Origin: Lentisphaerota bacterium
GTDB lineage: Bacteria; Verrucomicrobiota; Kiritimatiellia; PWTM01
Assembly (NCBI GenBank): GCA_016873715.1
Contig: VGWF01000001.1
Span: 64,394-128,393 of the forward strand
DNA: 64,000 nucleotides
Direction: 5' to 3'
Shown here in pieces: positions 1 through 12,400 of the stretch. Positions within the stretch are counted from its first letter, which is position 1, and each line of letters opens with the position of its first letter. The notes below the pieces were generated by a model. The model was not told the origin of the DNA and did no database searches. It saw only the letters and a program-made list of their open reading frames with translations. The position numbers were made by a program, and so were the translations under genes.

Positions 1-327
1 TTCATCGGGACCGCTCCATTCCGGACCATTAAACGGAGCGATCCCCTGATTATTGCCCTTCGATCGGCCCGCAGATTCAACACGAAAGGGACTCGGAAGG
101 AAAGCCCGGGGGAGGTGGGGCGCGAACAACACCCGACAGCCAACGTCCGACACCCACCATCCAACGGGGGGCGCGGGGTGACCTCGGAACGTGAAGCCTG
201 GAACTTGGAACTTGAAACTTGCCACCCCGGGGCGCGTACTTGGGGTGAACGGAGACCTACCCATGCGCGGCATGCTTCGAGTCGTGTGGTTGGCGCTGGC
301 GGCGGCGGTCGCGATGCTGGCCGCCGG

Positions 328-1224
328 ATGCGGCCCGGTCTGACGGCCATGACGTGGCGGCGCTACGCGGACTGCGCCCGGCTCAACGGGCGCGTCGTGG
401 GGCTGCTGGCCCGGGGCCGCTGGATGCGGTCCTCCGACATCGCCCGCAGCTACGACGCCCTCGCGCCGGACTACGACCGCGCGTGGCTCGTCCACCTCCA
501 GGACACCACCGCGCGGCTGCTGGACCGGATCCCGGGGGCGCTGCCGGAGGGGCCGATCCTCGACCTCGGCTGCGGAACCGGCTTCGCCGCCCTCCGGCTC
601 GCCCTGCGATTCCCGGGACGCGCCGTCGAGGCCTGCGATCTCTCCGCCGGCATGATCGCCGAGGCCCGCCGTCGGCCCGGCGCGGAGGCCGTCGCATGGT
701 CCGTCGCCGACATGGCCGCCTTCCTCGCCGGGCGCCCCGCGGGCTCCGCCGCGCTGGCGGTCGCCGCGTGGTCGGCCGGCTACGCGGATCTGCGCCACAT
801 CGCGAGGGACTGCGCCCGCGTGCTGCGGCCCGGCGGCCGCTTCGCCCTCGTCGTCAACCTCGCCGACACGCTCGCGCCTCTGCGGCGGGCCTTCCGCCAC
901 ACGATGCAGGCCCGGGCCGCCGATCTGCAGTGCCTCGCCCGCTTCCCGTTCCCGCGCGACGCCGCCGCGGTCCGCGCCGCGCTGCACGCGGCGGGGCTTC
1001 GCGCAGAGCACTTCGAGGAGGGCGCCTGCGCGATCGAACCGCCGCCGTCCGCCGACGGACGCCGCCTGCCCTGGCTGCTGCGGACCGGCACGCTGGCGGG
1101 CTTCGACGCGATGCTCCCGCTCGACCGGCCCGGCCCCGTCGCCGACACCTTCGAGGCGCGGCTCGCCGCGGACCCGGAGCCGATCCGCCATCACTACGCC
1201 CTCGCCGTCGCGGAGCGCCCGTGA
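328..1224 (+). CDS. Class I SAM-dependent methyltransferase
   Basis: Carries the glycine-rich SAM-binding motif LDLGCGTGFAALRL within the long ORF 115..1224. Start placed at an internal ATG at 328; alternatives are ATG 115 and ATG 349. Stop codon overlaps the downstream GTG start (GTGA). Confidence 0.7.
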   Translation: MRPGLTAMTWRRYADCARLNGRVVGLLARGRWMRSSDIARSYDALAPDYDRAWLVHLQDTTARLLDRIPGALPEGPILDLGCGTGFAALRLALRFPGRAVEACDLSAGMIAEARRRPGAEAVAWSVADMAAFLAGRPAGSAALAVAAWSAGYADLRHIARDCARVLRPGGRFALVVNLADTLAPLRRAFRHTMQARAADLQCLARFPFPRDAAAVRAALHAAGLRAEHFEEGACAIEPPPSADGRRLPWLLRTGTLAGFDAMLPLDRPGPVADTFEARLAADPEPIRHHYALAVAERP

Positions 1225-2534
1225 GCCTCTCCCTCCTCCAGTACGCCGCGCTGCTGCTCGACCCGCGCGTGTCGGGTCCGCCGCTGCGCGCGCTGCGGAC
1301 GATGCGCGCGCGCGGCATCCGGCGGCTGCCGGATCGCGTCTACGACCCGGCCAGCGGACGGCTGCGCCCGGCGCAGATGCGCCGGTTCCTCCGCGACTGG
1401 CTCGCCGGCGAGCGGCTGACGCGCCACCGCGGACAGTGGGTCCTCAACTCGTTCCTGCCGCCGTTCCCGGGACCCGCCTACCGGCGGATGTTCGACAACC
1501 TGTTCTCGGGCCGCCACCTGAGCCCCGTCTCCGCGTTCCTCGCCGTCACCGCGCGCTGTCCGGCGGACTGTCCGCACTGCAGCCGCGGCGGCCGGCGCGA
1601 CGGGGCGGAGCTGACGACCGCGCAGTGGACCGGCGTCATCCGCCAGTTGCACGGGCTGGGCACGAGCATCCTCGGCTTCACCGGCGGCGAGCCGTGCGTG
1701 CGAGACGACCTTGCGGTCCTTGTCCGCGCCGCAGCGGGCGGCGGCGCGGCGACGATCCTCTTCACGTCCGGCCGCGGGTTCGACGAAGCGCTCGCGCGGC
1801 GGCTGCGCGGCGCGGGCCTGTGGTCCGTGTGCGTGAGCCTCGATGCGGACACCGCCGCCGCTCACGACGCCGCGCGCGGGGCCGGCTCGTTCGCGACGGC
1901 GGTCGCCGCGCTCCGGCTCGCGCGCTCGCTCGGCTTCTACACGATGGCCGGCGCGGTCGCGTCGCCCGCGTTCGTCGAGTCCGGCATGCCCGCGCGCATC
2001 CACGGACTCCTCGCCGGACTTGGCGCGCAGGAGTTGAGGGTCGTCGAGGCGATGCCCTGCGGGCGCATGACGGGGTGTGCGACGGACGCGTTGCTCACGC
2101 CGGACCACGTCGCGGCGCTGCGGCGGTTCCACGTCGAGACGAACCGTTCCGGGCGCGGGCCGAAGGTCTGCGCCTTCAACCACGTCGAGAGCCCGGAGAT
2201 CTTCGGCTGCGGCGCCGGAACGCAGCACCTCTTCATCGAGCCCTCCGGCGTCGTGTGCCCGTGCGATTTCACGCCGCTCGGCTTCGGCAGCGTGCTGGAG
2301 ACGCCGCTGGCCGACTTGTGGCGCCGGATGAACCTCGCGATGGGGGACAACCCGCGCACGCACTGCTTCATCCAGCGGAACCGGGACCGTGTCCGCGCCC
2401 GGGCCGCCGACGGCTACCCGCTGCCGCGCGACGTCAGCGAGGCGATCTGTCGCGAGGCCGGTCCGGAGCCGCTGCCGGCCTACTTTGCCCTCGTCACGTC
2501 CGGCGGCAAGGCCGGCGGAAAGGAACCGTCATGA
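1221..2534 (+). CDS. Radical SAM enzyme with C-terminal SPASM-type Cys cluster and a ~100-aa N-terminal extension that may recognise a peptide substrate
   Basis: CxxxCxxC motif (CPADCPHC) followed by GGEP. C-terminal motif CAFNHVESPEIFGCGAGTQHLFIEPSGVVCPCDF is typical of SPASM/twitch auxiliary Fe-S domains. GTG start at 1221 overlaps the methyltransferase stop. Its own stop overlaps the next gene's ATG (ATGA at 2531). Confidence 0.8.
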   Translation: MSLSLLQYAALLLDPRVSGPPLRALRTMRARGIRRLPDRVYDPASGRLRPAQMRRFLRDWLAGERLTRHRGQWVLNSFLPPFPGPAYRRMFDNLFSGRHLSPVSAFLAVTARCPADCPHCSRGGRRDGAELTTAQWTGVIRQLHGLGTSILGFTGGEPCVRDDLAVLVRAAAGGGAATILFTSGRGFDEALARRLRGAGLWSVCVSLDADTAAAHDAARGAGSFATAVAALRLARSLGFYTMAGAVASPAFVESGMPARIHGLLAGLGAQELRVVEAMPCGRMTGCATDALLTPDHVAALRRFHVETNRSGRGPKVCAFNHVESPEIFGCGAGTQHLFIEPSGVVCPCDFTPLGFGSVLETPLADLWRRMNLAMGDNPRTHCFIQRNRDRVRARAADGYPLPRDVSEAICREAGPEPLPAYFALVTSGGKAGGKEPS

Positions 2535-3133
2535 GCCTCGTTGCGCGAAGGGTATGGTTCATCGTGGCCGGCGCCGTCGCCGGATTCCTCAGCGGCGCGA
2601 TGGTGCCGCACGTGTTCGGTGTCCGCGGGCTGATCCTCGGCATGGCGATCTCCGTCGGGGCGGCGATGCTGAATCCATGGCGGCGGGATCCGGACGGCCG
2701 GACGCCGGGCCTCGCGCGAACCCTGGGCGTGGCGGCGGGTGTGGCCGTCGCGGCCTTCGGACTGATCCTCGCGTGGCACGAGATGGTTCCGCCGCCGCAC
2801 CACGACATCGATCTGAACCGGATGAACGCGGTGGCGGCCGGACTCGGGTGCGTGGTCACGGCCGCCGGGATCCTGCTCGGCTATCGCGCGCGCCGGGCCG
2901 GGATCCGCCGCGCGTGGGCGTGGTTCGTCCTGACGCCTTTTGCGACCGCGGCCTTGCGGTCGTGGTCCGTCGGAGGCATCGAGGCGTTCCCGTTCTCCCT
3001 GCTTCTCGGCTCGACCCCGTTCGTCCTCCTGTGGCTCCTCGCCGCCCGCCTCACCGACCCCGGGTGGTCACACGTCCGGTGGCTCCGGGCGGCTTCGGAC
3101 GACGGGGCCGTCGCCGGGCACGGGGCGGAATGA
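2531..3133 (+). CDS. Integral membrane protein with ~6 predicted TM helices (paralog A)
   Basis: Hydrophobic helices. N-terminal region VAGAVAGFLSGAMVPHVFGVRGLILGMAISVGAAMLNPW aligns with the downstream gene. ATGA overlap on both sides. Confidence 0.65.
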   Translation: MSLVARRVWFIVAGAVAGFLSGAMVPHVFGVRGLILGMAISVGAAMLNPWRRDPDGRTPGLARTLGVAAGVAVAAFGLILAWHEMVPPPHHDIDLNRMNAVAAGLGCVVTAAGILLGYRARRAGIRRAWAWFVLTPFATAALRSWSVGGIEAFPFSLLLGSTPFVLLWLLAARLTDPGWSHVRWLRAASDDGAVAGHGAE

Positions 3134-3768
3134 AGGTGTTCCTGCATCAACTGGGATTCGTTCTTGCCGGTGGAGCGGCCGGATTCGCGAGCGGCATCCT
3201 GATGCCTGGCGCGGGCGGAGTTCGGGGTGCCATTCTCGGCGCCAGCATTGCCCTTGGAGCGGCCGTGCTGAATCCGTGGAAGGGTCGCGCGACGATGCCC
3301 GGGCTCGTCCGCGTCTTCGTTGTGGCCGTTCTTGCGGGCGCCATGGCGGCCGAGGGCATCATCGCATGGGAGTGCGTGCGTCCCTACGAGTGGAGTCGCA
3401 TGGAGCCTTTCGGGCATCACGCTCTCGACCCGCTGGCCGGCCAGGCCGTCGCCGGGAGCCTTTCCTACTCGATCACCCTGTTGTTCTGGATCCGGGCCCG
3501 CAGGGCCAGCCTTCACCATTCGTGGGCTTGGCTGGCCGCAGCGATCGTGTTCGGACCGGTCGCGCGGCTCGTGGGCGCAGGTGGTCCCGTGGCAGTTGAA
3601 GCCGAGACCCTGTTGGGAATGGCCCTCTTCGTTGCCCTGACCGCGCTGCCGTTTGCCGGATTCTGGTTCTACGCTGCACAGGTGGCCGACCCGGCCTGGA
3701 CGCGCAGGCGCTGGTTCCTAAGGACCCAGGGAAGGGTGCCACCGCCGCCCCTGCCGCCATCGGTCTGA
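3130..3768 (+). CDS. Integral membrane protein with ~6 predicted TM helices (paralog B, tandem duplicate)
   Basis: LAGGAAGFASGILMPGAGGVRGAILGASIALGAAVLNPW is paralogous to the upstream gene. ATG at 3130 overlaps the upstream stop. Confidence 0.65.
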   Translation: MKVFLHQLGFVLAGGAAGFASGILMPGAGGVRGAILGASIALGAAVLNPWKGRATMPGLVRVFVVAVLAGAMAAEGIIAWECVRPYEWSRMEPFGHHALDPLAGQAVAGSLSYSITLLFWIRARRASLHHSWAWLAAAIVFGPVARLVGAGGPVAVEAETLLGMALFVALTALPFAGFWFYAAQVADPAWTRRRWFLRTQGRVPPPPLPPSV

Positions 3769-3779
3769 CCTCCCGGCGT

Positions 3780-3822
3780 CCAACCCTTGGAAGTCGCAAA
3801 CCTTTCCTCTTCCAAGGGTTGG
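3780..3822 (+). terminator. Stem-loop terminator of the methyltransferase/radical-SAM/membrane operon
   Basis: Perfect 14-bp inverted repeat ccaacccttggaag / cttccaagggttgg with a 15-nt loop, starting 12 nt after the stop codon. Followed by ggaaattg, a weak U-tract. Confidence 0.4.
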
Positions 3823-3945
3823 AAATTGCCCGTTGCGGCATCTCCCGATCTCCGGACCATCTCTGTCCCCGTCCCGGTCCATGTTGTCTGTCCCCGCCGG
3901 ATCGTCGGAGTCGGGGCTTGCTTTCCGCCCGAAGGACCCGGATGG

Positions 3946-3987
3946 GTCTTACATCTGGTGATGCGATCGCACCATCAGATGTAAGAC
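3946..3987. promoter_or_regulatory. 42-bp AT-rich palindrome (12-bp perfect arms around a GCGATCGC core), candidate protein-binding site
   Basis: gtcttacatctg-gtgat-gcgatcgc-accat-cagatgtaagac. Unusually AT-rich for this genome. Sits in the 650-bp non-coding gap upstream of gpmI. Confidence 0.3.
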
Positions 3988-4290
3988 CGGCGGGACGGGA
4001 GTGGGGCGTCAGGATCTCGCTTGGAATGCTTCGACTTCGCGATCGGCGGGAGGCCGGGCTTGACGGGCTGATGGCGGAGAGCGGATCCGATGGCTGGGGC
4101 TTGAGCCGGAGCACTCCCCGGGGCTCCCGCGGTTTGCCCTTCCGCCGCCACGATCCGTCCGGCCGGATTCGGGCGTTCAGGCGCAGGTCAAGCGTGTGGC
4201 GGTCGTCCCGGGCGATGCGCAGCTTGCCTCCTGTTCCGTGCCTCTCATCCGGTGATCTCCCGCCCGCTGACGGGTTGTTCGCCGCCGGGC

Positions 4291-4318
4291 TTGAAGGTGG
4301 TCGGAAAACGGGCATAAT
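4291..4318 (+). promoter_or_regulatory. Candidate sigma70-like promoter for gpmI
   Basis: TTGAAG, 16-nt spacer, CATAAT, about 100 nt upstream of the gpmI ATG. Rare AT-rich hexamers in a high-GC background. Confidence 0.3.
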
Positions 4319-4419
4319 GGAAAGACTGCAACCATGCTGTCCGGCGACCGTCACGGGTTCACTTCGGGATCCGGGGCGGGCGGGGCCGGGCGGGCAATAA
4401 CCGGGCGGGAGCGAACGAC

Positions 4420-6078
4420 ATGGAGACCTTGCGGCGGATGGCGGGCTACGCGGGGCCGGAGGGGCCGGTGGTGCTGCTGATCATGGACGGCGTCGGGATC
4501 GGGAAGCACGAGGACGGCGACATGGTTCGCGCCGCGCACACGCCGCATCTCGACTGGCTGGCCGGGAATGCGATCGCCAGCAGCCTGAAGGCCCACGGAA
4601 CCGCCGTCGGCATGCCGAGCGACGACGACATGGGGAATAGCGAGGTCGGCCACAACGCGATCGGCTGCGGCCGCGTCTTCGCGCAGGGCGCCCGGCTGGT
4701 CAGCGAGGCGATCGCCTCGCGCGCCCTCTTCGCCGGCCAGGCGTGGCGCGAGGTTGTCGGCAACGTCGTGGCGAAGTCCTCGCAACTCCACTTCATCGGC
4801 CTCTTCTCCGACGGCAACGTCCACAGCCACCTCGACCACCTCGAGGCGATGCTGACGGAGGCGAAGGCGCAGGGCGTGAAGCGCGCGCGCGTGCACATCC
4901 TGCTCGACGGCCGCGACGTGCCGCCGACGAGCGCGATGACCTACGTCGACCGCTTCGAGGCGTTCCTGAAGGCGATCAACGCGGGCGGCACGGTCGACTT
5001 CGCGATCGCCTCCGGCGGCGGCCGCATGAAGGTGACGATGGACCGCTACGAGGCCGACTGGCGCATGGTGGCGACCGGCTGGGCGACCCACGTGAAGGGC
5101 GAGGGCGACGGCTTCGCGAGCGCGCGGGAGGCGATCGAGGCGCTGCGGGCGCGGAAGCCGGGCATCCTGGACCAGGACCTCCCCGCCTTCGTGATCCACC
5201 GCGGCGGGAAGCCGCTCGGGCCGGTGGTCGACGGCGACAGCGTCGTCTTCTTCAACTTCCGCGGCGATCGCTCGATCGAGATCTCCCGCGCGTTCGAGGA
5301 TGCGGAGTTCACGAAATTCGCGCGCGGGCCGCGGCCGGACGTCGTCTTCGCGGGCATGATGCAGTACGACGGCGACCTGAAGCTCCCGAAGCGCTTCCTG
5401 GTCGAACCGCCGGCCATCGACCGCACGATGGGCCAGTTCCTCGCCGCCTCCGGCGTGCGCCAGTTCGCGTGCAGCGAGACGCAGAAGTTCGGGCACGTGA
5501 CCTACTTCTTCAACGGCAACCGCTCGGGCAAGTTCAACGCCGCGCTCGAGGACTACGTCGAGGTGCCCTCGGACCTCGTCCCGTTCGAGGAGCGGCCGTG
5601 GATGAAGGCGGCGGAGATCACCGACGCCGTCCTCCGGGCGATCCGCGAGAACCGGCACCGCTTCATCCGGCTCAACTACGCCAACGGCGACATGGTCGGC
5701 CACACGGGCGTGTTCCAGGCGGTGCGCATCGCCGTCGAGGCGGTCGACCTCAGCCTGGGCCGCGTGATGAAGGCGGTGAAGGCGGCCAAGGGGATCCTCG
5801 TCGCCTCGGCCGACCACGGAAACGCGGACGACATGGCCGAGCGGGACAAGAAGACCGGCAAGGCGGCGATCGACCCGGCGACGGGCGAGCCGAAGCCGAA
5901 GACGGCGCACTCGCTCAACCCGGTGCCGGTCTTCGTGTACGACCCGTCCGGCGCGGCGAAGGCGCGCCTCTCGGGCGCGAAGGATCTCGGCATCAGCAGC
6001 CTCGCGGCGACGTGCCTGAAGCTGATGGGCTTCGAGCCGCCCGAGGGCTACACCCCGAGCGTGGTGGACGTGGGGTGA
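4420..6078 (+). CDS. gpmI: 2,3-bisphosphoglycerate-independent phosphoglycerate mutase
   Basis: N-terminal LLIMDGVGIG ... MGNSEVGHNAIG metal-site motifs typical of iPGM. 552 aa. Confidence 0.85.
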   Translation: METLRRMAGYAGPEGPVVLLIMDGVGIGKHEDGDMVRAAHTPHLDWLAGNAIASSLKAHGTAVGMPSDDDMGNSEVGHNAIGCGRVFAQGARLVSEAIASRALFAGQAWREVVGNVVAKSSQLHFIGLFSDGNVHSHLDHLEAMLTEAKAQGVKRARVHILLDGRDVPPTSAMTYVDRFEAFLKAINAGGTVDFAIASGGGRMKVTMDRYEADWRMVATGWATHVKGEGDGFASAREAIEALRARKPGILDQDLPAFVIHRGGKPLGPVVDGDSVVFFNFRGDRSIEISRAFEDAEFTKFARGPRPDVVFAGMMQYDGDLKLPKRFLVEPPAIDRTMGQFLAASGVRQFACSETQKFGHVTYFFNGNRSGKFNAALEDYVEVPSDLVPFEERPWMKAAEITDAVLRAIRENRHRFIRLNYANGDMVGHTGVFQAVRIAVEAVDLSLGRVMKAVKAAKGILVASADHGNADDMAERDKKTGKAAIDPATGEPKPKTAHSLNPVPVFVYDPSGAAKARLSGAKDLGISSLAATCLKLMGFEPPEGYTPSVVDVG

Positions 6079-6224
6079 GACGGGGGAACGGCGGGCGGAA
6101 GCGTGGATGACGGGACGAACGGACGGGTGGACGGATGATGGGATGAGGGGATGGGGCGGGGTCCGGCATCCACCCCATCATCCACCCATTCATTCGTCCG
6201 CGAGGGGTTCTCCGGGAGGAAGCC

Positions 6225-9200
6225 ATGAACGCGTGGATCCGTGGGTGGACGTGGGCGGCGTCGGCGCTGGTGCTCGCGGCGGGCGCGGGCGCGCAGGCGC
6301 CGGAGGCCGGGTGGCAGGTCGACGTCGATACGGTCCGCGTGGCGAACGCGGCGCTGGATCTCCGCGAGGCGGGCCTGTTCCGGCTCGCGGACGGCAGCCT
6401 CGTGGTACGCGTGCGGTGCGGCGCGGTGCCGGCGCCCGAGAGCGTTCGCATCCTGCTCGACGTCGACGAGCCGACCAACGGTCTTGCCGGGACGGGGGCG
6501 GACCTGATGATCGAGGGCGATGTCCTCTTCCGCTACCCGCGCTTCGCGAAGGGCTGGGAATGGAACGAGGTCTCCGGCGTGGCCTCGGTCGCCTCGGAGT
6601 TCGGCACGCGCAGCATGCTGCTTCCTGCGGGGGTTCCGGCCCCGCGGATGCGGTGGGCGGTGGAGACGCTGGACCGCGAGTGGAAAACGGTCGACCGCCT
6701 CCCCGCGCAGGGCATGGTCGAGTCCCGCCTCGAGCAGCTTCCGGAGATGGGGCCCTCCGCGGGCCCGCCTCCGGCCTCCGGCCTCCTGATCACGGCGGCC
6801 CCGCCGCTGGTCGCGCGCTTCCCGGCCCTCGCGCAGGGGGCGTGGGCGGAGGACGCGGCGGCGAAGGCGATGACCTTCCCGCTCCACGGCGGCGCGGCGG
6901 CGCCGGTCCGCTTCGAGGTCCGCCCGGTCGGCGGCGCGGCGGAGGCGATGACGCCGGCGTCGGCGTGGCGCGACGGCGAGCGCGTGAAATGGAGCGGCAC
7001 CAACGCCGGGCTCTCGTGGACGATGCTGGCGGTGCCCGGCGCGGCGGGGGACCTGTGGGTCGCGGCCGAGTTCCAGGGCGGGCGCGAAGCCGCCTTTGAT
7101 TTCGCCGCCTCGATCGGCCTGCCGGCGTGGTCGTGGACGGTGGCGGACGGCACGCGGGCGGGGCGTCCGCTCGATGCGCAGGCGTGGCGCGGCGGCGGGC
7201 TCGGGACGACGTCGCCGGTCGGCGAGGCCCGCAGCCAGGCGTTGTGGCCGTTCGCGGTCGCGTCGTCGCCCTCGGGCACGGTTGCGCTGGTGGCCGATCC
7301 GGACGAGCCGCGGCCGGTCTTCTACGAGGGCGGCGCGCAGCCGCCGACCGTCGCGATCGTCCACCCGATGGCGGTGACGCCGATGACGACGCGATCCCCC
7401 GGCCGCGCCTGCGTGGCCTTCCTCGTGCGCGGCGCCGCGCCGTCGGCCGATCCGTTGCGGTCCGCGGCGGCGTGGTGGCACGGGTTGCTGGCGCCCGGCG
7501 CGACGCCCCCGGTGCCGACGCAGTGGCTCGACACCGGGGCCGATGCGGCGGCGGCGCGGAAGATCGTCGGGGGCCCCGTCGCGGTCGAGGCGCTGCGGTC
7601 CGGCGAGTCCGGCGCGGTGGCCGAGGCGTGGCGGTACGTGCGCCTGCGGCCGTGGTGGTGCGAGATGCCGGTGCCCCGCGGCGTGAAGGCCGACGCGGCC
7701 GAGGCGATGCGGCTGCTGCGGTTCCATGCGGCGGCCGGCGGGCCGCTGGCCTGGTACGCGCAGTCGGCGATCCTCGGCGCGGCGCGCGGCGCGGACGATT
7801 CGGTTGCGATGCGGGCGGTCGCGACGCCCGGCGGGACGGTGCTGCGCGTGGCGGTCTCGACCGACCCGCACTTCCTGACGACCCCCGGCGCGCCGTGGAA
7901 CCGCTCGATGCTCGAGTGGGCCTACGCGACGCAGTTCCACGACTCGCCCGGGATGGCGGCGGTGCTGTTCGACGGCCTCGACGGGCTCGGCGGGCTGGAT
8001 CACAACCGCGCGACGCTCGCCGCGGCCGACCGGGCCGCCGCGCACGCGGCCGGCTCGCGGCTGCCCGGCGTGCCCCGCGCCCTCGATGCCTTCGAGTTCC
8101 TCGACGCCTTCCGCCGCGCCATCGGCCCCGGGCGGCGCGCGATCGCGCTGGCCGACCCGTTCGAGGAGCACGCGATGTTCGCGCCGTTCGCCGACGTCAC
8201 CGTGTTCACCGATGCGGCGCGTCCGGCGGACGGCGGGGCGCGGGCCTTCCGCCACCGGCTGCTGGCCGGCGCCCGCCCCTGCGTGCGGGTGATCTCGGGC
8301 GATTTCGAGTGGATGGATCCCGCGACGTTCCGCGCGGCCCTCGCCGACTCGCTCTTCCTCGGCATGATCCCGTCGGCCGGGCGCGACGCGGCGGGGCGCG
8401 ACTACTGGTCGCAGCCGGCCTGGGTCGCGCGCGACGCCGTGGCGTTGCGGACGCTGGTGCCCCTCGCGCGGCGTCTCGCCGCGGCGGGGTGGCGCGTCGA
8501 GGGGACGGCCTCGGCGGCGGGCGAGGGGATCGATGTCGAGTCCTTCGGCTCCGGCGAGCTGCGCATGGCGACCGTTCGCAACGGCGGACGGGCGTCGCGC
8601 GAGGTCGAGCTGGCCTGGAGCGAGGTCGGCGGGCCGGTGTACGTGGTGCAGCCCCTGACCGCCGCGTGCGACTACCTCGAGCCCCGCGAGGGCGCGATCC
8701 GTTCGAGCCTGCACCTCGGGCCGGGCGAGGTGGCGGTGCTGGACCTGGTGCCGGCCCCGGCGGTCGAGGCCGAACTCGGGTTCCTCGACGGCTGGAACCC
8801 GTCGGCGGGGGAGGGCGAGGCGGCGGCGGCGAATCTCCGGGCGCTCCGCAGGGAGATGGAGGCGGGCGTCGGGACATGGGTGTCGTGCGCGGCGCCGCTG
8901 ATCCGCGGGAGCCGCAACGCCGTCGCGGTGCGCATCCTCAACCGCGGCGACTCGCCGCTGGTCATCGCCGAGGCGCGGCTGACGGGCGCGGGCGGCGCCG
9001 CGGCGATGCTCGCCGAGCCGCGCATCCTCGGCGCGGGCGAGGCCGCGGGGTTCACGGGCGAACTGACCGACGACCTGCCCGGCGCGACGCCGTGGGTGAC
9101 GCTGTCGTGGCGGCTGCAGCGCGGCGACCGCGAGTGGATCTCGACCCGCCGGCTCCGCGCGGCCTTCGTCGCGCCGGTCGAGGTGATGCCCGCCCGCGCC

Positions 9201-9467
9201 GAGCTCGCGCCGGCGGGAACGGTGGCCGAGGTGGAGGTCGGGTTGCGCAACCACTCGCGGCAGCGGCAGACGGTGCACCTCGCGTGGGACGGCGACTTCC
9301 GCGGCGACCGGCTGGAGACCGTCCTTGAGCCCGAGGAGTCCAAGACGATGACGCTGCCCGTCGCCGGGGAGCCGGGCCGCAGCGGGCGCATCGAGGTGCG
9401 GGCCTCGGCCGGCGGACGGGAGATCCACCGCAGCGACGTCCGCATCCGCTTCCCGGAGGCCCCGTGA
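6225..9467 (+). CDS. Large secreted hypothetical protein (1080 aa) with N-terminal signal peptide
   Basis: Signal peptide MNAWIRGWTWAASALVLAAGAGAQA and balanced composition. The competing 1195-aa antisense ORF is Arg/Pro/Gly-rich junk. Confidence 0.6.
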   Translation: MNAWIRGWTWAASALVLAAGAGAQAPEAGWQVDVDTVRVANAALDLREAGLFRLADGSLVVRVRCGAVPAPESVRILLDVDEPTNGLAGTGADLMIEGDVLFRYPRFAKGWEWNEVSGVASVASEFGTRSMLLPAGVPAPRMRWAVETLDREWKTVDRLPAQGMVESRLEQLPEMGPSAGPPPASGLLITAAPPLVARFPALAQGAWAEDAAAKAMTFPLHGGAAAPVRFEVRPVGGAAEAMTPASAWRDGERVKWSGTNAGLSWTMLAVPGAAGDLWVAAEFQGGREAAFDFAASIGLPAWSWTVADGTRAGRPLDAQAWRGGGLGTTSPVGEARSQALWPFAVASSPSGTVALVADPDEPRPVFYEGGAQPPTVAIVHPMAVTPMTTRSPGRACVAFLVRGAAPSADPLRSAAAWWHGLLAPGATPPVPTQWLDTGADAAAARKIVGGPVAVEALRSGESGAVAEAWRYVRLRPWWCEMPVPRGVKADAAEAMRLLRFHAAAGGPLAWYAQSAILGAARGADDSVAMRAVATPGGTVLRVAVSTDPHFLTTPGAPWNRSMLEWAYATQFHDSPGMAAVLFDGLDGLGGLDHNRATLAAADRAAAHAAGSRLPGVPRALDAFEFLDAFRRAIGPGRRAIALADPFEEHAMFAPFADVTVFTDAARPADGGARAFRHRLLAGARPCVRVISGDFEWMDPATFRAALADSLFLGMIPSAGRDAAGRDYWSQPAWVARDAVALRTLVPLARRLAAAGWRVEGTASAAGEGIDVESFGSGELRMATVRNGGRASREVELAWSEVGGPVYVVQPLTAACDYLEPREGAIRSSLHLGPGEVAVLDLVPAPAVEAELGFLDGWNPSAGEGEAAAANLRALRREMEAGVGTWVSCAAPLIRGSRNAVAVRILNRGDSPLVIAEARLTGAGGAAAMLAEPRILGAGEAAGFTGELTDDLPGATPWVTLSWRLQRGDREWISTRRLRAAFVAPVEVMPARAELAPAGTVAEVEVGLRNHSRQRQTVHLAWDGDFRGDRLETVLEPEESKTMTLPVAGEPGRSGRIEVRASAGGREIHRSDVRIRFPEAP

Positions 9468-9477
9468 CGGGCGCGGC

Positions 9478-12400
9478 ATGATCCACCTGACCGAGAAGAT
9501 GCTGCTGGAGTGGGCCGGCCAGAAGAAGTACCTGGAGGGCCGCCAGCTGCTCGACCGCGAGACGGTCAGCGATCTCGAGATCGACCCGCCGCTCGTGCGC
9601 GGCACGCTGAACAACGGCGCGCGCTCGCTTCGCACCGGCTTCCGCGTCGTGAGCCCGACCTGCGTCGAGAGCCTCTGCCCGTGCTACGACAACCGCGAGC
9701 GCGGCATCATCTGCTCGCACGTCGTCGCGCTGGCGATCGAGGTGCGGCGCCGCGCGGCCGACCCCGGCGAGGCGGAGCGGAGGGAGGCCGAGCGCCGGCG
9801 CGCCGCGCAGATGGCCGCCGTCCCGGAGGGAGCCTACCTGCGCCGCGCGAAGGGGGGCAACGGCGGCGGGGTGGTCGCGCGGATCGAGGCGGTGCTGCCC
9901 GCCGACTGGCCCGCGGCGTGGGCGGCCGGGCGCGTGGGCGTCGAGTGCTTCGCGGTGGCGAACGGCCGGCGCGTGTCGCTCGACCAGGTCCCGCGCGACC
10001 TGGCGCTGGCGCTGCCGGCGAAGGACGAAGCCCTGCTGTTCGTTCTCGAGGACATCGGCGGCGGGCCGCGCGGACGGCTGGACCTCGGGCGGGCGGACTT
10101 CCTCAATCTTCTCGAGGTGTGCGCCGGCCGGCCGATCCCGGTGGCCGGCGGCGCGCCGGCCCTCACCGTCCACACGGAGGCGCGGGTCGAATCGCGCATC
10201 CGCCTGGCGCTCGACGCGCAGACGGGCGAGATCGAGATGACGCTGCACACCGCGCTGCCGGCGCCCCCCGGCGCGGACGCGACGGTGCACCTCGTGCACC
10301 GCCACAAGGGGTGGGCCGGCACGACGTCGGCGCTGTGGCGCCTCGCGAAGACCCTGCCCGAGCCCCTGCACGGCGCCTACGCCCACGGCATCCGGATCCC
10401 GCGCCTCGCGGTGCCGCGCTTCCTCGGCAGCGAGTGGCCGGCGCTGGCGCAGTGGCTGCCGATCGAGACGACGATCTCGCCGGAGCTGTTCGCCATCGAG
10501 CCGGCGAAGCCGGGCTTCAAGCTGGCGGGGCGCGGGAGCCTGGCCTCGCTGACCGCGACGCTCTACGCGGAGTACGACGGCACCTCGCTGGTCGCCGGCA
10601 AGGCGGATCCGGCGGGCCAGTTCGCCATCCCCGATCCGTCGGACATCCTGCGCTACCTCGTCCGCAACCCCGGCGCCGAGACCGACGCCCTGCGTCTGCT
10701 CGCCGGTCTCGGCCTCACCGGCGACCCGGGCGACCGTCTCGCGCCGCTGATGGGCGAGCGCGCGGTCCTCAATTTCCTCGGCCGCAACCTGCCCGCGCTG
10801 CGGCGCCGCGGATGGAAGGTCGACATCCAGGGCCGCGCGGGCGGCTTCCTCGAGCAGTCGTCGTGGGCGACGCCGGTCGTGAGGATCACGCCGACCGGCG
10901 GCGGCGGCTGGTTCGAGGTCGAGTTCCACTTCGAGGACACGACGGGCGTGAGCCTCTCGCCGTCGGACATCCGCCGCGCGCTGCTGAAGGGCGAGTCGTT
11001 CGTCGACTGCGGCGGCCGGCCGGTGCTGTTCGACGCGAGCGCCGTCGAGGCGATGCAGGAGGTCTTCGAGGACTGCGCCTCGGCCGACGGCTCGAAGCCG
11101 GGCGCGTTCCGGCTGGCGGGCGTCTACGCCGCCTACGTGCGCGAGTCGCTCCACGCGCTCGACGGCGTCGATATCGAGGCCGACGCCGCGTGGCGCGCCG
11201 CGGTGGAGAAGCAGTCCGGCCGCGTCGGCGACGTGCCGGTGACGCTCGATCCCGCCCTGCAGGCCTTCCTGCGCCCGTACCAGCGCGAGGGCGTCGGCTG
11301 GCTTCGCTCGCTCGAGCAGTGCGGCTTCGCCGGGATCCTGGCCGACGAGATGGGCCTGGGCAAGACGGTGCAGACCCTCGCGTGGCTGCGCCTGGATCGG
11401 CTCAACCCCGAGGCGCGCGGGCGGCCCGCTCTGATCGTCTGCCCGACGAGCCTGATCGAGAACTGGGCGGAGGAGGCGGCGCGGTTCACGCCGTCGCTGC
11501 GCGTGCAGGTCATCGCCGGCCTCGACCGGCACGAGCGGTGGGACTCGCTCGGAAAGGCGGACCTCCTGATCACGTCCTACGCGCTGCTGCGCCGCGACCT
11601 CGACCGCCACCTGCAGCACCAGTTCGCGGTCGTCGTGCTCGACGAGGCGCAGCACATCAAGAACCGCGCCACGCGCAACGCGATCGCCGCGAAGCAGCTC
11701 AAGGCCTTCCACAAGCTGGTCCTCACCGGCACGCCGATGGAGAACAGCGTCGCGGACCTCTGGTCCATCATGGACTTCCTGATGCCGGGCTATCTCGGCT
11801 CCGGCGACGGCTTCCGCCGCCGCTACGAGCAGCCGATCGCCCAGGGCGCCGAGGCGGGCGAGGCCGCGCTCGTGCGGCTGCGGCGCAAGCTGCGGCCGTT
11901 CCTGATGCGCCGCATGAAGCGCGACGTCGCCCGCGAGCTTCCGCCGAAGATCGAGCGCGTCGCGCACTGCACGCTGACCGGCGACCAGCAGCGGGTCTAC
12001 AAGGAGCTGCTCGAGTCCTCGCGCCGCCGCATCGCCGACATGGTCGCGGAGCGCGGGTTCGACGCCTCGCGCATGGAGATCCTCCGGACGCTGCTGCGGC
12101 TGCGGCAGACGTGCTGCCACCTCGACCTGCTGCGGGTGGAGGGGCTCCGGAGCGAGTTCCCGTCGGCCAAGATGGACCTCCTCTTCGAACTGCTCGACGA
12201 GGCCCTCGACGGCGGCCACCGCGTGCTGGTCTTCAGCCAGTTCGTCTCGATGCTGACGATCCTCCGCGCCGAGATGGAACGGCGGCAGTGGCGCTACTGC
12301 TACCTCGACGGCGCGACGCAGGACCGCCTCTCGGTGGTCAAGCAGTTCAACGGCGACCGCGGCATCCCGGTCTTCCTGATCAGCCTCAAGGCCGGCGGCA

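Follow-up and report, generated by a model that had tools for sequence, protein, structure and literature searches.

The window analysed here is a GC-rich, 64-kb stretch of genomic DNA from a Lentisphaerota bacterium (contig VGWF01000001.1, positions 64,394 to 128,393), and close to its start lies a compact cassette of five plus-strand genes (263–3823). In order, these genes encode a short peptide from a micro-open reading frame (micro-ORF), a class I S-adenosylmethionine (SAM)-dependent methyltransferase, a radical SAM enzyme and two membrane proteins, TM1 and TM2, and an inverted repeat follows the last of them. The four larger genes overlap by their start and stop codons, as an earlier note on this DNA had described: the methyltransferase stop codon (TGA, 1222–1224) overlaps the GTG start of the radical SAM gene at 1221 (GTGA), the radical SAM stop codon (2532–2534) overlaps the ATG of TM1 at 2531 (ATGA), and the TM1 stop codon (3131–3133) overlaps the ATG of TM2 at 3130 (ATGA). 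That note saw a cassette of four genes and took position 263 as the start of the methyltransferase gene. At position 263, however, a different ORF of 26 codons begins with ATG, out of frame with the methyltransferase, whose own start is at 349, and this micro-ORF brings the number of genes to five. The database gene call places the methyltransferase start at 328, overlapping the peptide ORF; in homologues of the methyltransferase, a conserved N-terminus (R-Y-x-x-C-x-R-L-N) starts directly after the peptide stop codon.

The micro-ORF product reads MRGMLRVVWLALAAAVAMLAAG up to a predicted cleavage point before Cys, followed by CGPV and the stop codon (written in full, MRGMLRVVWLALAAAVAMLAAGCGPV). 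It consists of a positively charged n-region, a hydrophobic h-region and a lipobox, A-A-G-C, after which there is only Gly-Pro-Val. The tetramer GGAG lies 8 nucleotides (nt) 5' of its ATG, and its stop codon lies 5 nt 5' of the methyltransferase ATG. No Pfam or NCBIfam family matches the peptide. A candidate upstream peptide had been mentioned in passing in the earlier note; we find that it is a conserved partner of the neighbouring genes, and the most conserved and informative element of the cassette.

Scanning one genome per species for the radical SAM enzyme gave 60 loci, and in 50 of these an equivalent ORF of 20–49 residues (median 27) that ends in C-G-P-[V/I/L]-stop accompanies the two enzyme genes. 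The 50 distinct peptides, which derive from about 30 clusters of radical SAM enzymes (at 70% identity), share a common design made up of a start codon, an n-region with Lys or Arg, 13–24 uncharged residues, a lipobox (Gly, Ala or Ser at –1 and mostly Ala, Ser or Thr at –2) and the CGP[V/I/L]-stop end, in which Cys, Gly and Pro are invariant and which is always exactly C-terminal. In six-frame translations of 863 kb of sequence, CGP[VILM]-stop occurs 54 times, and 53 of these occurrences are the ORFs described here, upstream of and on the same strand as the methyltransferase–radical SAM pair; the 64-kb window contains exactly one. At the nucleotide level, there is synonymous variation at the C, G, P and X codons and at the stop codon: all four codons are used for Gly (GGC 17, GGG 13, GGA 13, GGT 8) and for Pro (CCG 28, CCC 9, CCT 7, CCA 7), 11 different codons occur at the terminal Val/Ile/Leu position, and the stop codon is TGA in 38 cases, TAA in 10 and TAG in 3. 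Since the choice among synonymous codons is unconstrained wherever the peptide is conserved, selection acts on the amino-acid sequence of the peptide rather than on a nucleotide motif, which indicates that the micro-ORF is a real gene.

Further support comes from translation signals and gene order. A Shine–Dalgarno-like tetramer precedes an in-frame start codon in 32 of 53 ORFs, compared with 6.6% of random positions (roughly ninefold enrichment). The peptide stop codon usually lies 0–12 nt before the methyltransferase start or overlaps it. In three loci (L006, L024 and L028), the peptide ORF is instead found 1.3–2.5 kb upstream of the methyltransferase, with other genes between: the CGPI peptide ORF of L006 (6551–6649) lies at a distance of 2.5 kb, and L024 carries two identical precursor ORFs (MKKYLTLVAVIAVISLFILSGCGPL; 2108–2185 and 2787–2864), interleaved with genes of the TM family, 1.6 and 2.3 kb upstream. 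Precursors in several copies are a typical trait of clusters for RiPPs (peptides synthesised by the ribosome and modified post-translationally). Because the micro-ORF is detached in these three loci and duplicated in L024, it is an independent gene, and not a leader of the methyltransferase or a by-product of its start.

Several trivial origins of the micro-ORF were considered and rejected. A by-product of the methyltransferase start, or a nucleotide motif, is not compatible with the synonymous variation or with the position of the Cys, which falls 2–115 nt before the methyltransferase match in adjacent loci and 1.3–2.5 kb before it in the other three. Production of a lipoprotein–methyltransferase fusion by frameshifting is contradicted by frame and distance, both of which vary between loci. 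A force-sensing arrest peptide of the SecM/MifM type can also be dismissed, as a nascent peptide of 20–30 residues is too short to emerge from the ribosome exit tunnel. The identity of the terminal residue (Val, Ile or Leu) switches within radical SAM clusters of at least 70% identity, and so carried no specificity signal when compared with radical SAM clades. In L028, a Victivallaceae locus, a secreted, ankyrin-repeat-like protein of 340 residues (judged by looking at the sequence; 6005–7027) is encoded between the peptide ORF and the methyltransferase, and just upstream of its gene lies an ORF of 221 residues that looks TetR-type by eye.

Anchored on the invariant Cys, 45 of the 50 peptides fit a lipobox rule of the PROSITE type ([^DERK]6-[LIVMFWSTAG]2-[LIVMFYSTAGCQ]-[AGS]-C), a purely rule-based assignment. 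The other five are near misses, with Cys, Asn or Pro at positions –2 to –4. Lys or Arg is present in the n-region of 47 of the 50 peptides, and the uncharged run before Cys has a median length of 17 residues. The sequence of the h-region is not conserved, while the n-h-lipobox layout and the CGP[V/I/L]-stop end are kept. A precursor that is almost wholly signal peptide could be taken to mean that the released signal peptide is itself the functional, pheromone-like product and the CGPX stub merely the site for LspA, and there is a precedent for this in the enterococcal sex pheromones, which are cut from lipoprotein signal sequences. We consider this highly improbable, given that conservation within the precursor is lowest in the signal-peptide sequence, with the four-residue stub invariant, and that such a product would leave no role for a cytoplasmic radical SAM enzyme and methyltransferase.

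Table 1 Features of the cassette and its flanks in the window.
Feature	Position	Strand	Basis
Precursor micro-ORF, 26 aa (putative)	263..343	+	Conserved CGP[V/I/L]-stop ORF, lipobox, Shine–Dalgarno-like motif
Class I SAM-dependent methyltransferase, 291 aa	349..1224	+	Pfam Methyltransf_25/11/12
Radical SAM enzyme, 437 aa, SPASM-type C-terminal domain, GTG start	1221..2534	+	PF04055 and PF13186
Membrane protein TM1, 200 aa, six transmembrane helices and C-terminal amphipathic helix	2531..3133	+	AlphaFold2 model, family alignment
Membrane protein TM2, 212 aa, TM1 paralogue	3130..3768	+	36% identity to TM1; family profile
Hairpin, 15-bp stem, 15-nt loop	3779..3823	+	Arms 3779–3793 / 3809–3823
Candidate ECF-sigma-type promoter, TGAAAC-N16-CGTA	213..238	+	Read from sequence

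The peptide travels with a widespread pair of enzymes. At least 259 relatives of the radical SAM enzyme are detectable; among the 120 matches listed, which come from Kiritimatiellia, Lentisphaerota, Verrucomicrobiota and metagenome bins, identity to the window's protein is 51–84% (the protein itself matching at 100%), and across phyla homologues are 42–84% identical. Among the sources of the 60 loci are isolates (Pontiellaceae bacterium B1224 and Victivallis vadensis DSM 14823) as well as metagenome-assembled genomes (MAGs) labelled Alphaproteobacteria (from the gut), Desulfobacteraceae, Elusimicrobia and Omnitrophota. Loci that bear the peptide belong to Kiritimatiellia, Lentisphaerota and Verrucomicrobiota and to the MAGs labelled Alphaproteobacteria, Desulfobacteraceae and Elusimicrobia. 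A methyltransferase homologue was found immediately upstream of the radical SAM gene by tblastn in 54 of the 60 loci; the remaining six are four contigs cut near the radical SAM gene, one orphan radical SAM gene (L055) and one C-terminal radical SAM fragment (L070). When ORFs within 7 kb were clustered, only the methyltransferase, the radical SAM enzyme and the TM family recurred. Co-conservation of the four genes of the earlier note is not uniform: the membrane proteins are found in about two-thirds of the loci, in one to four copies and sometimes upstream. The most distant radical SAM relatives (34% identity) are those of the Omnitrophota loci, L065 (6234–7970) and L064, where the gene is preceded by two ORFs of methyltransferase size (286 and 291 residues) and no CGP peptide was detected; these loci may represent a sister system with a different substrate.

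Domain searches assign both enzymes to large superfamilies and to no curated NCBIfam family. The methyltransferase matches class I SAM methyltransferase domains in Pfam (Methyltransf_25, E 7e-15; also Methyltransf_11 and Methyltransf_12) and reaches the cutoff of no NCBIfam family. The radical SAM enzyme scores above cutoff for both PF04055 (64 bits, cutoff 29.5) and PF13186, the SPASM domain (29.6 bits, cutoff 21.5, residues 330–373), bearing out the earlier description of a SPASM region. Its CxxxCxxC motif (C113-x3-C117-x2-C120) is invariant in 20 homologues, and eight further Cys residues are conserved (C204, C280, C317, C330, C346, C348, C382 and C410; six invariant and two at 90% or more), which from their number would be enough for two auxiliary clusters. 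Their spacing (C317-x12-C330, C346-x-C348) is non-canonical with respect to the seven-Cys SPASM motif (CX9-15GX4C...CX2CX5CX3C...C). Neither the radical SAM enzyme nor the methyltransferase has an N-terminal hydrophobic signal.

Of the NCBIfam models (release 20), PqqE matches the radical SAM enzyme best, with 96.2 bits (cutoff 381), and the matches of the enzyme to AhbD, NirJ2, MftC, TIGR04053 and StsB are all lower relative to their cutoffs. Housekeeping and curated radical SAM equivalogues could be rejected throughout, since PqqE, MftC, AhbC/D, NirJ, SkfB, StsB, Tes, BlsE, MoaA, HxsC, ScmE, GeoRSP, TIGR04053 and TIGR04133 all score far below their NCBIfam cutoffs. Anti-phage defence was likewise rejected, PADLOC showing only generic similarity to methyltransferases and to the viperin core.

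As the CxxxCxxC motif sits at residues 113–120, the radical SAM enzyme has an N-terminal extension of about 100 residues, which had been proposed to recognise the substrate. The extension is real and conserved, with an invariant W-V-x-N-S-F-x-P-P-x-P-G stretch and with R68, H69 and G71 invariant or nearly so; the expected signature of a RiPP recognition element (RRE) or PqqD-like domain, however, was not found. An AlphaFold2 model of the enzyme (predicted local distance difference test (pLDDT) 80, predicted template modelling score 0.86) gives the extension the order alpha-alpha-beta-beta-alpha-beta-beta-alpha, which differs from the beta3-alpha3 winged helix that we take to be typical of an RRE. 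No RRE-like gene recurs in the neighbourhoods of the loci either.

TM1 and TM2 are tandem paralogues with six transmembrane helices, as had been surmised: they are 36% identical (E 2e-22), TM2 matches the profile of the family with an E-value of 2e-52, and an AlphaFold2 model of TM1 (pLDDT 80) contains six transmembrane helices and a C-terminal helix. TM1 carries the conserved motifs AGFLSG, PFxLLW and DPAW, and across the family S21, F164 and W168 are invariant and G22, D176 and P177 conserved at 90% or more; the family alignment contains no conserved dyad or triad of a catalytic type. Neither protein matches Pfam or NCBIfam, and a Foldseek search of the TM1 model against the PDB gave nothing significant. 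The family is rare, an exhaustive HMMER search returning 135 representative clusters in 1.84 billion proteins, and word-indexed searches with TM1 and the TM alignment found only 6–8 proteins. Using a profile built from curated sequences, free of shadow ORFs of the radical SAM gene, we detected the family in about 36–38 of about 55 usable loci. The TM gene usually lies directly 3' of the radical SAM gene. In loci of the Victivallales type, the TM gene is upstream, or forms the N-terminal domain of proteins of 446–540 residues. L006 (ENA ERZ25042269, a 5.87-Mb contig) contains a methyltransferase of 462 residues (8616–10004) whose N-terminal ~170 residues are a domain of the six-helix family, preceded by a TM-family gene of 209 residues and a membrane protein of 446 residues. 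The membrane proteins are accessory; nothing was found in favour of the role as exporters or immunity proteins that had been suggested for them. They probably hold or present a hydrophobic precursor at the cytoplasmic face of the membrane, or move the product.

Together, these observations are best read as a RiPP–lipoprotein hybrid based on peptide maturation by a radical SAM/SPASM enzyme. On balance, we consider it probable that the five genes form a translationally coupled maturation pathway for a ribosomal peptide, with the 26-residue micro-ORF product as the substrate and a membrane-anchored, tailored lipo-tetrapeptide as the product. Directly observed are the order of the genes, their domains and the fact that peptide, methyltransferase and radical SAM enzyme are conserved together; from this joint conservation, we infer that the micro-peptide is the natural substrate of both SAM-dependent enzymes. 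In such a pathway, the cytoplasmic radical SAM/SPASM enzyme would carry out a radical reaction on the G-P-[V/I/L] tail, for which one may guess at epimerisation, oxidative decarboxylation of the MftC kind or cross-linking at the C-terminal aliphatic residue or close to it, and the class I methyltransferase would methylate the tail, perhaps by esterifying the free alpha-carboxylate (again a guess), both enzymes requiring SAM. The six-helix proteins would probably assist at the membrane face during modification of the tail. The signal-peptide part would then deliver the modified precursor to the general lipoprotein machinery, where Lgt would place diacylglycerol on the Cys thiol, LspA would cut before the Cys and Lnt might N-acylate it, leaving an enzyme-tailored lipo-tetrapeptide anchored in the membrane.

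Several details fit this proposal. The leader keeps only its physical properties and the lipobox, suggesting recognition by the general Sec/Lgt/LspA route rather than through a dedicated RRE, and the absence of an RRE is consistent with a leader recognised by that machinery. Since the motif is always exactly C-terminal, as are those of MftA and ChrA/DybA (CPACGMG), recognition or the reaction itself may involve the free C-terminus. The sole Cys of the mature part occupies the lipobox position. That a TM-family domain is fused to the methyltransferase N-terminus in L006 makes it probable that the enzymes act at the membrane. Finally, the enzymes are highly conserved and no transporter or immunity gene is conserved with them, which suggests a physiological molecule of the envelope rather than an antibiotic. 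The RiPP-like maturation cassette of the earlier note stands in outline, with a conserved partner peptide and a radical SAM enzyme outside the housekeeping families, while its RRE, terminator and uniform co-conservation of four genes proved wrong or remained unproven.

The closest known parallel is provided by the DAG-RiPPs, peptides with signal peptidase II (SPII)-type signal peptides that are modified in the cytoplasm by MNIO enzymes and shown by mass spectrometry to be triacylated (PMC13056109, PNAS 2026; preprint November 2025). Examples are DybA/DybH, chryseobasin-like peptides, some bufferins and oxazolins (PMC13056109). As in those systems, the precursor here has an SPII-type signal and a lipobox Cys (by the rule-based pattern, in 45 of 50 peptides), and a neighbouring cytoplasmic enzyme, whose adjacency is observed, would act on a motif at the extreme C-terminus before general Lgt, LspA and Lnt processing. 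The chemistry would be different: the DAG-RiPP enzyme is an MNIO (DUF692) iron enzyme, whereas the cassette has no MNIO domain and combines a radical SAM/SPASM enzyme with a class I methyltransferase. DAG-RiPP precursors, at 50–160 residues, have a lipobox Cys separate from a Cys-containing core, whereas the mature part here would comprise four residues with the lipobox Cys as its sole Cys, and lipidation, measured by mass spectrometry in the former, is deduced for the latter. The DAG-RiPP study covers MNIO families only, does not mention radical SAM enzymes and mined ORFs of 50–160 residues around MNIOs (PMC13056109), so that its search could not have found the micro-peptides described here.

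In structural comparisons, peptide maturases are among the nearest relatives of the radical SAM enzyme. A profile of 20 homologues recovers only distant relatives among solved structures (SkfB, PqqE, BlsE, MoaA and GDGT-MAS), and Foldseek with the AlphaFold2 model returns SkfB, PqqE, SuiB, BlsE, MoaA, viperin, CteB and anSME at 11–23% identity, a level of generic similarity. A role as peptide maturase fits this profile, judging from the SPASM type, the nearest neighbours (SkfB, PqqE, SuiB and MftC-type enzymes) and the lack of a housekeeping equivalogue. The likeness to sactipeptide and ranthipeptide maturases (SkfB, AlbA, CteB and SuiB) extends to the class of enzyme architecture, the best fold matches (SkfB, E 2.7e-14) and small peptides encoded next to the enzyme. 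The differences are that identity to these enzymes is 14–23%, that its N-terminal domain is not an RRE, nor is it the 2Fe-2S domain of SkfB, that the spacing of the SPASM Cys residues is non-canonical, and that the core has one Cys, apparently reserved for lipidation.

That last point may be read differently. The product could be a non-lipidated RiPP in which the single Cys is the target of the radical SAM enzyme, either forming a thioether to Pro or to Val/Ile/Leu, as in sactipeptides and ranthipeptides, or undergoing an anSME-like oxidation (C-x-P-x resembling the sulfatase C-x-P-x-R); the signal-like leader would then only tether the precursor and be removed by means other than LspA, perhaps with the aid of the TM proteins. 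In its favour, Cys thiols serve as target or reactant for most characterised radical SAM/SPASM peptide maturases; Cys, Gly and Pro do not vary in these peptides; the fold search ranks SkfB and SuiB at the top, with CteB and anSME within the first 16; and the host phyla are rich in sulfatases and anSME. We nevertheless regard this alternative as unlikely, because it leaves unexplained why the n-h-lipobox layout, with small residues at –1 and –2, persists in 45 of 50 peptides while the leader sequence drifts. In addition, no anSME model is among the best 25 of 40 NCBIfam matches, the anSME structure ranks below SkfB, PqqE and SuiB, and the TM family lacks a conserved dyad or triad of catalytic type.

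With respect to its likely purpose, we liken the cassette to mycofactocin and pyrroloquinoline quinone (PQQ), whose products are physiological and not antibiotic. Shared features are a radical SAM/SPASM enzyme that is highly conserved, a short motif at or near the C-terminus of the peptide (MftA ends in ...C-G-V-Y), a SAM methyltransferase in the cluster (MftM), and the presence of PqqE and MftC among the best NCBIfam and PDB matches. The scores nonetheless stay far from the cutoffs (PqqE 96 versus 381 bits, MftC 76 versus 265 bits), and, unlike those systems, the cassette has no PqqD/MftB-type RRE, its peptide has the leader of a lipoprotein signal and contains neither Tyr nor Glu, and no peptidase, flavoenzyme or glycosyltransferase partner recurs. 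TIGR04133 (rSAM_w_lipo), a radical SAM/SPASM family that we presume to be defined by its pairing with a small lipoprotein, does not include the window's enzyme, which scores 43 bits against a cutoff of 425. A more remote analogy is the CaaX box, a C-terminal motif of four residues that starts with Cys and receives an S-linked lipid and SAM-dependent methylation; there, the enzymes are unrelated, the lipid is a prenyl group, aaX is removed, and neither a radical SAM enzyme nor a signal peptide takes part.

High conservation of the enzymes also invites an explanation in which the peptide is not the substrate at all. The methyltransferase–radical SAM pair could make or modify a compound of other origin than the peptide (a small molecule, lipid or cofactor), and the micro-ORF would then be an independent mini-lipoprotein or a translated upstream ORF that couples or regulates translation of the operon. 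In support, the radical SAM enzyme lacks an RRE and is conserved to a degree unusual among RiPP enzymes; sugar- or cofactor-modifying SPASM/twitch enzymes (BlsE, MoaA, BtrN and DesII) are among its relatives; the peptide stop codon abuts or overlaps the methyltransferase start in most loci; and L007/L029 carry the pair without the peptide. A purely regulatory upstream ORF, however, would need neither an invariant C-G-P-[V/I/L] end nor a lipobox, the ORF is detached from the methyltransferase and even duplicated in some loci, and there is no other conserved family nearby to supply a small-molecule pathway. We therefore rate this explanation as quite improbable, below the non-lipidated peptide discussed above.

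The lipo-tetrapeptide pathway is itself weighed down by a number of observations. No peptide ORF was found within 8 kb of the methyltransferase and radical SAM genes of L007/L029, and the orphan radical SAM gene of Victivallis vadensis DSM 14823 (L055, 8001–9296) has no methyltransferase, peptide or TM gene within 8 kb. The orphan enzyme shares only 51% identity with its cassette counterpart in MAGs of V. vadensis (L043 and L044), and its gene lies downstream of an ORF of 478 residues; it may be a paralogue that works with another partner, or the genome may encode its partners at another site. The N-terminal 100 residues of the radical SAM enzyme, taken from five diverse members, gave no Pfam match (PF05402 included) even at E ≤ 10. 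At 50–60% identity between phyla, the conservation of the radical SAM enzyme is unusual for a RiPP maturase and more like that of a metabolic enzyme. A precursor of 20–30 residues is shorter than the ribosome exit tunnel, so that targeting would have to be post-translational, and we know of no precedent for a mature lipoprotein of four residues. Moreover, most radical SAM/SPASM RiPP enzymes use Cys thiols as cross-link donors, and such a reaction would here compete with Lgt for the sole Cys.

If the proposed pathway is correct, RiPP–lipoprotein hybrids would no longer be confined to MNIO enzymes but include products of radical SAM chemistry, four residues, the shortest core known, would suffice for a mature lipoprotein, and an uncharacterised but conserved radical SAM/SPASM family would gain a defined, synthesisable substrate (lipobox plus CGPX). 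More tentatively, and with a little less than even confidence, we suggest that the cassette represents a class of lipoprotein-pathway RiPPs that is the first to depend on radical SAM chemistry, and that no smaller ribosomal lipopeptide is known than its product, a tailored di- or triacylated Cys-Gly-Pro-(Val/Ile/Leu). The cassette is kept in anaerobes of the Kiritimatiellia, Verrucomicrobiota and Lentisphaerota (gut Victivallales among the last), and its product would have a conserved role in the envelope, for example as a membrane-anchored cofactor, signal or structural lipid, and not as an antibiotic. A natural, Pam3Cys-like micro-lipopeptide of gut and environmental bacteria of the Planctomycetes–Verrucomicrobia–Chlamydiae group could then matter for envelope biology; its recognition by innate immunity (TLR2) is speculation. 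In the literature, we found no lipobox peptide linked to a radical SAM enzyme and no CGP[VIL] motif, the study of MNIO DAG-RiPPs being the one related work to emerge, in a survey that covered subscription journals thinly, so an earlier description is possible. Precursors of 20–30 codons fall into a blind spot of genome mining, below the limits of gene callers and the length windows of RiPP searches. Common gene callers apply a minimum length of 90 nt, and most of the micro-ORFs (which range from 63 to 150 nt) are shorter, which explains their absence from public annotation; because the precursor genes are too short, public records of the cassette, which dozens of species carry, name no more than a "radical SAM protein" and a "hypothetical protein".

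The cassette is flanked by non-coding elements on both sides. The hairpin begins 11 nt after the TM2 stop codon, and its two 15-nt arms are 100% complementary, so that the perfect stem reported earlier is present, with 15 and not 14 base pairs. It is unique in the window and much more stable than shuffled sequences (z –4.1; 0 of 200 shuffles as stable). Its designation as a terminator is tentative: the loop is long, there is no U-run, the next bases being AAATTGCCCG, and a terminator scan made no call there. It probably marks where the operon ends on its 3' side, or else stabilises the RNA. A second strong palindrome (3945–3988), with 22-nt arms of 91% complementarity and no spacer, lies between this hairpin and a phosphoglycerate-mutase-like ORF (4420–6078).

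Upstream, three tandem heptamers (200–220; GGAACTT GGAACTT GAAACTT) are found, the last of which overlaps a candidate promoter, TGAAAC-N16-CGTA, located 25 nt 5' of the peptide ORF. This motif matches the consensus for sigma factors of the extracytoplasmic function (ECF) type, and genes for an ECF sigma factor and a zf-HC2 anti-sigma factor are divergently oriented just upstream (4206–5338 on the minus strand of the longer contig, L001). The nearest relative (L063) retains the motif, L031 has it in looser form and the other 50 loci lack it, which points to a lineage-specific ECF-sigma-type promoter; ECF-sigma regulation as a general trait was rejected, as the motif precedes only 3 of 53 ORFs.

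Nothing in the 64-kb window was matched by Rfam or tRNA scans. Long ORFs also occur in alternative frames and on the opposite strand (354–2534; 1194–2363, 4351–5910 and 6048–9635 on the minus strand; and others), which are typical artefacts of high GC content, and shadow ORFs of this kind inside the radical SAM gene cluster with one another across loci.

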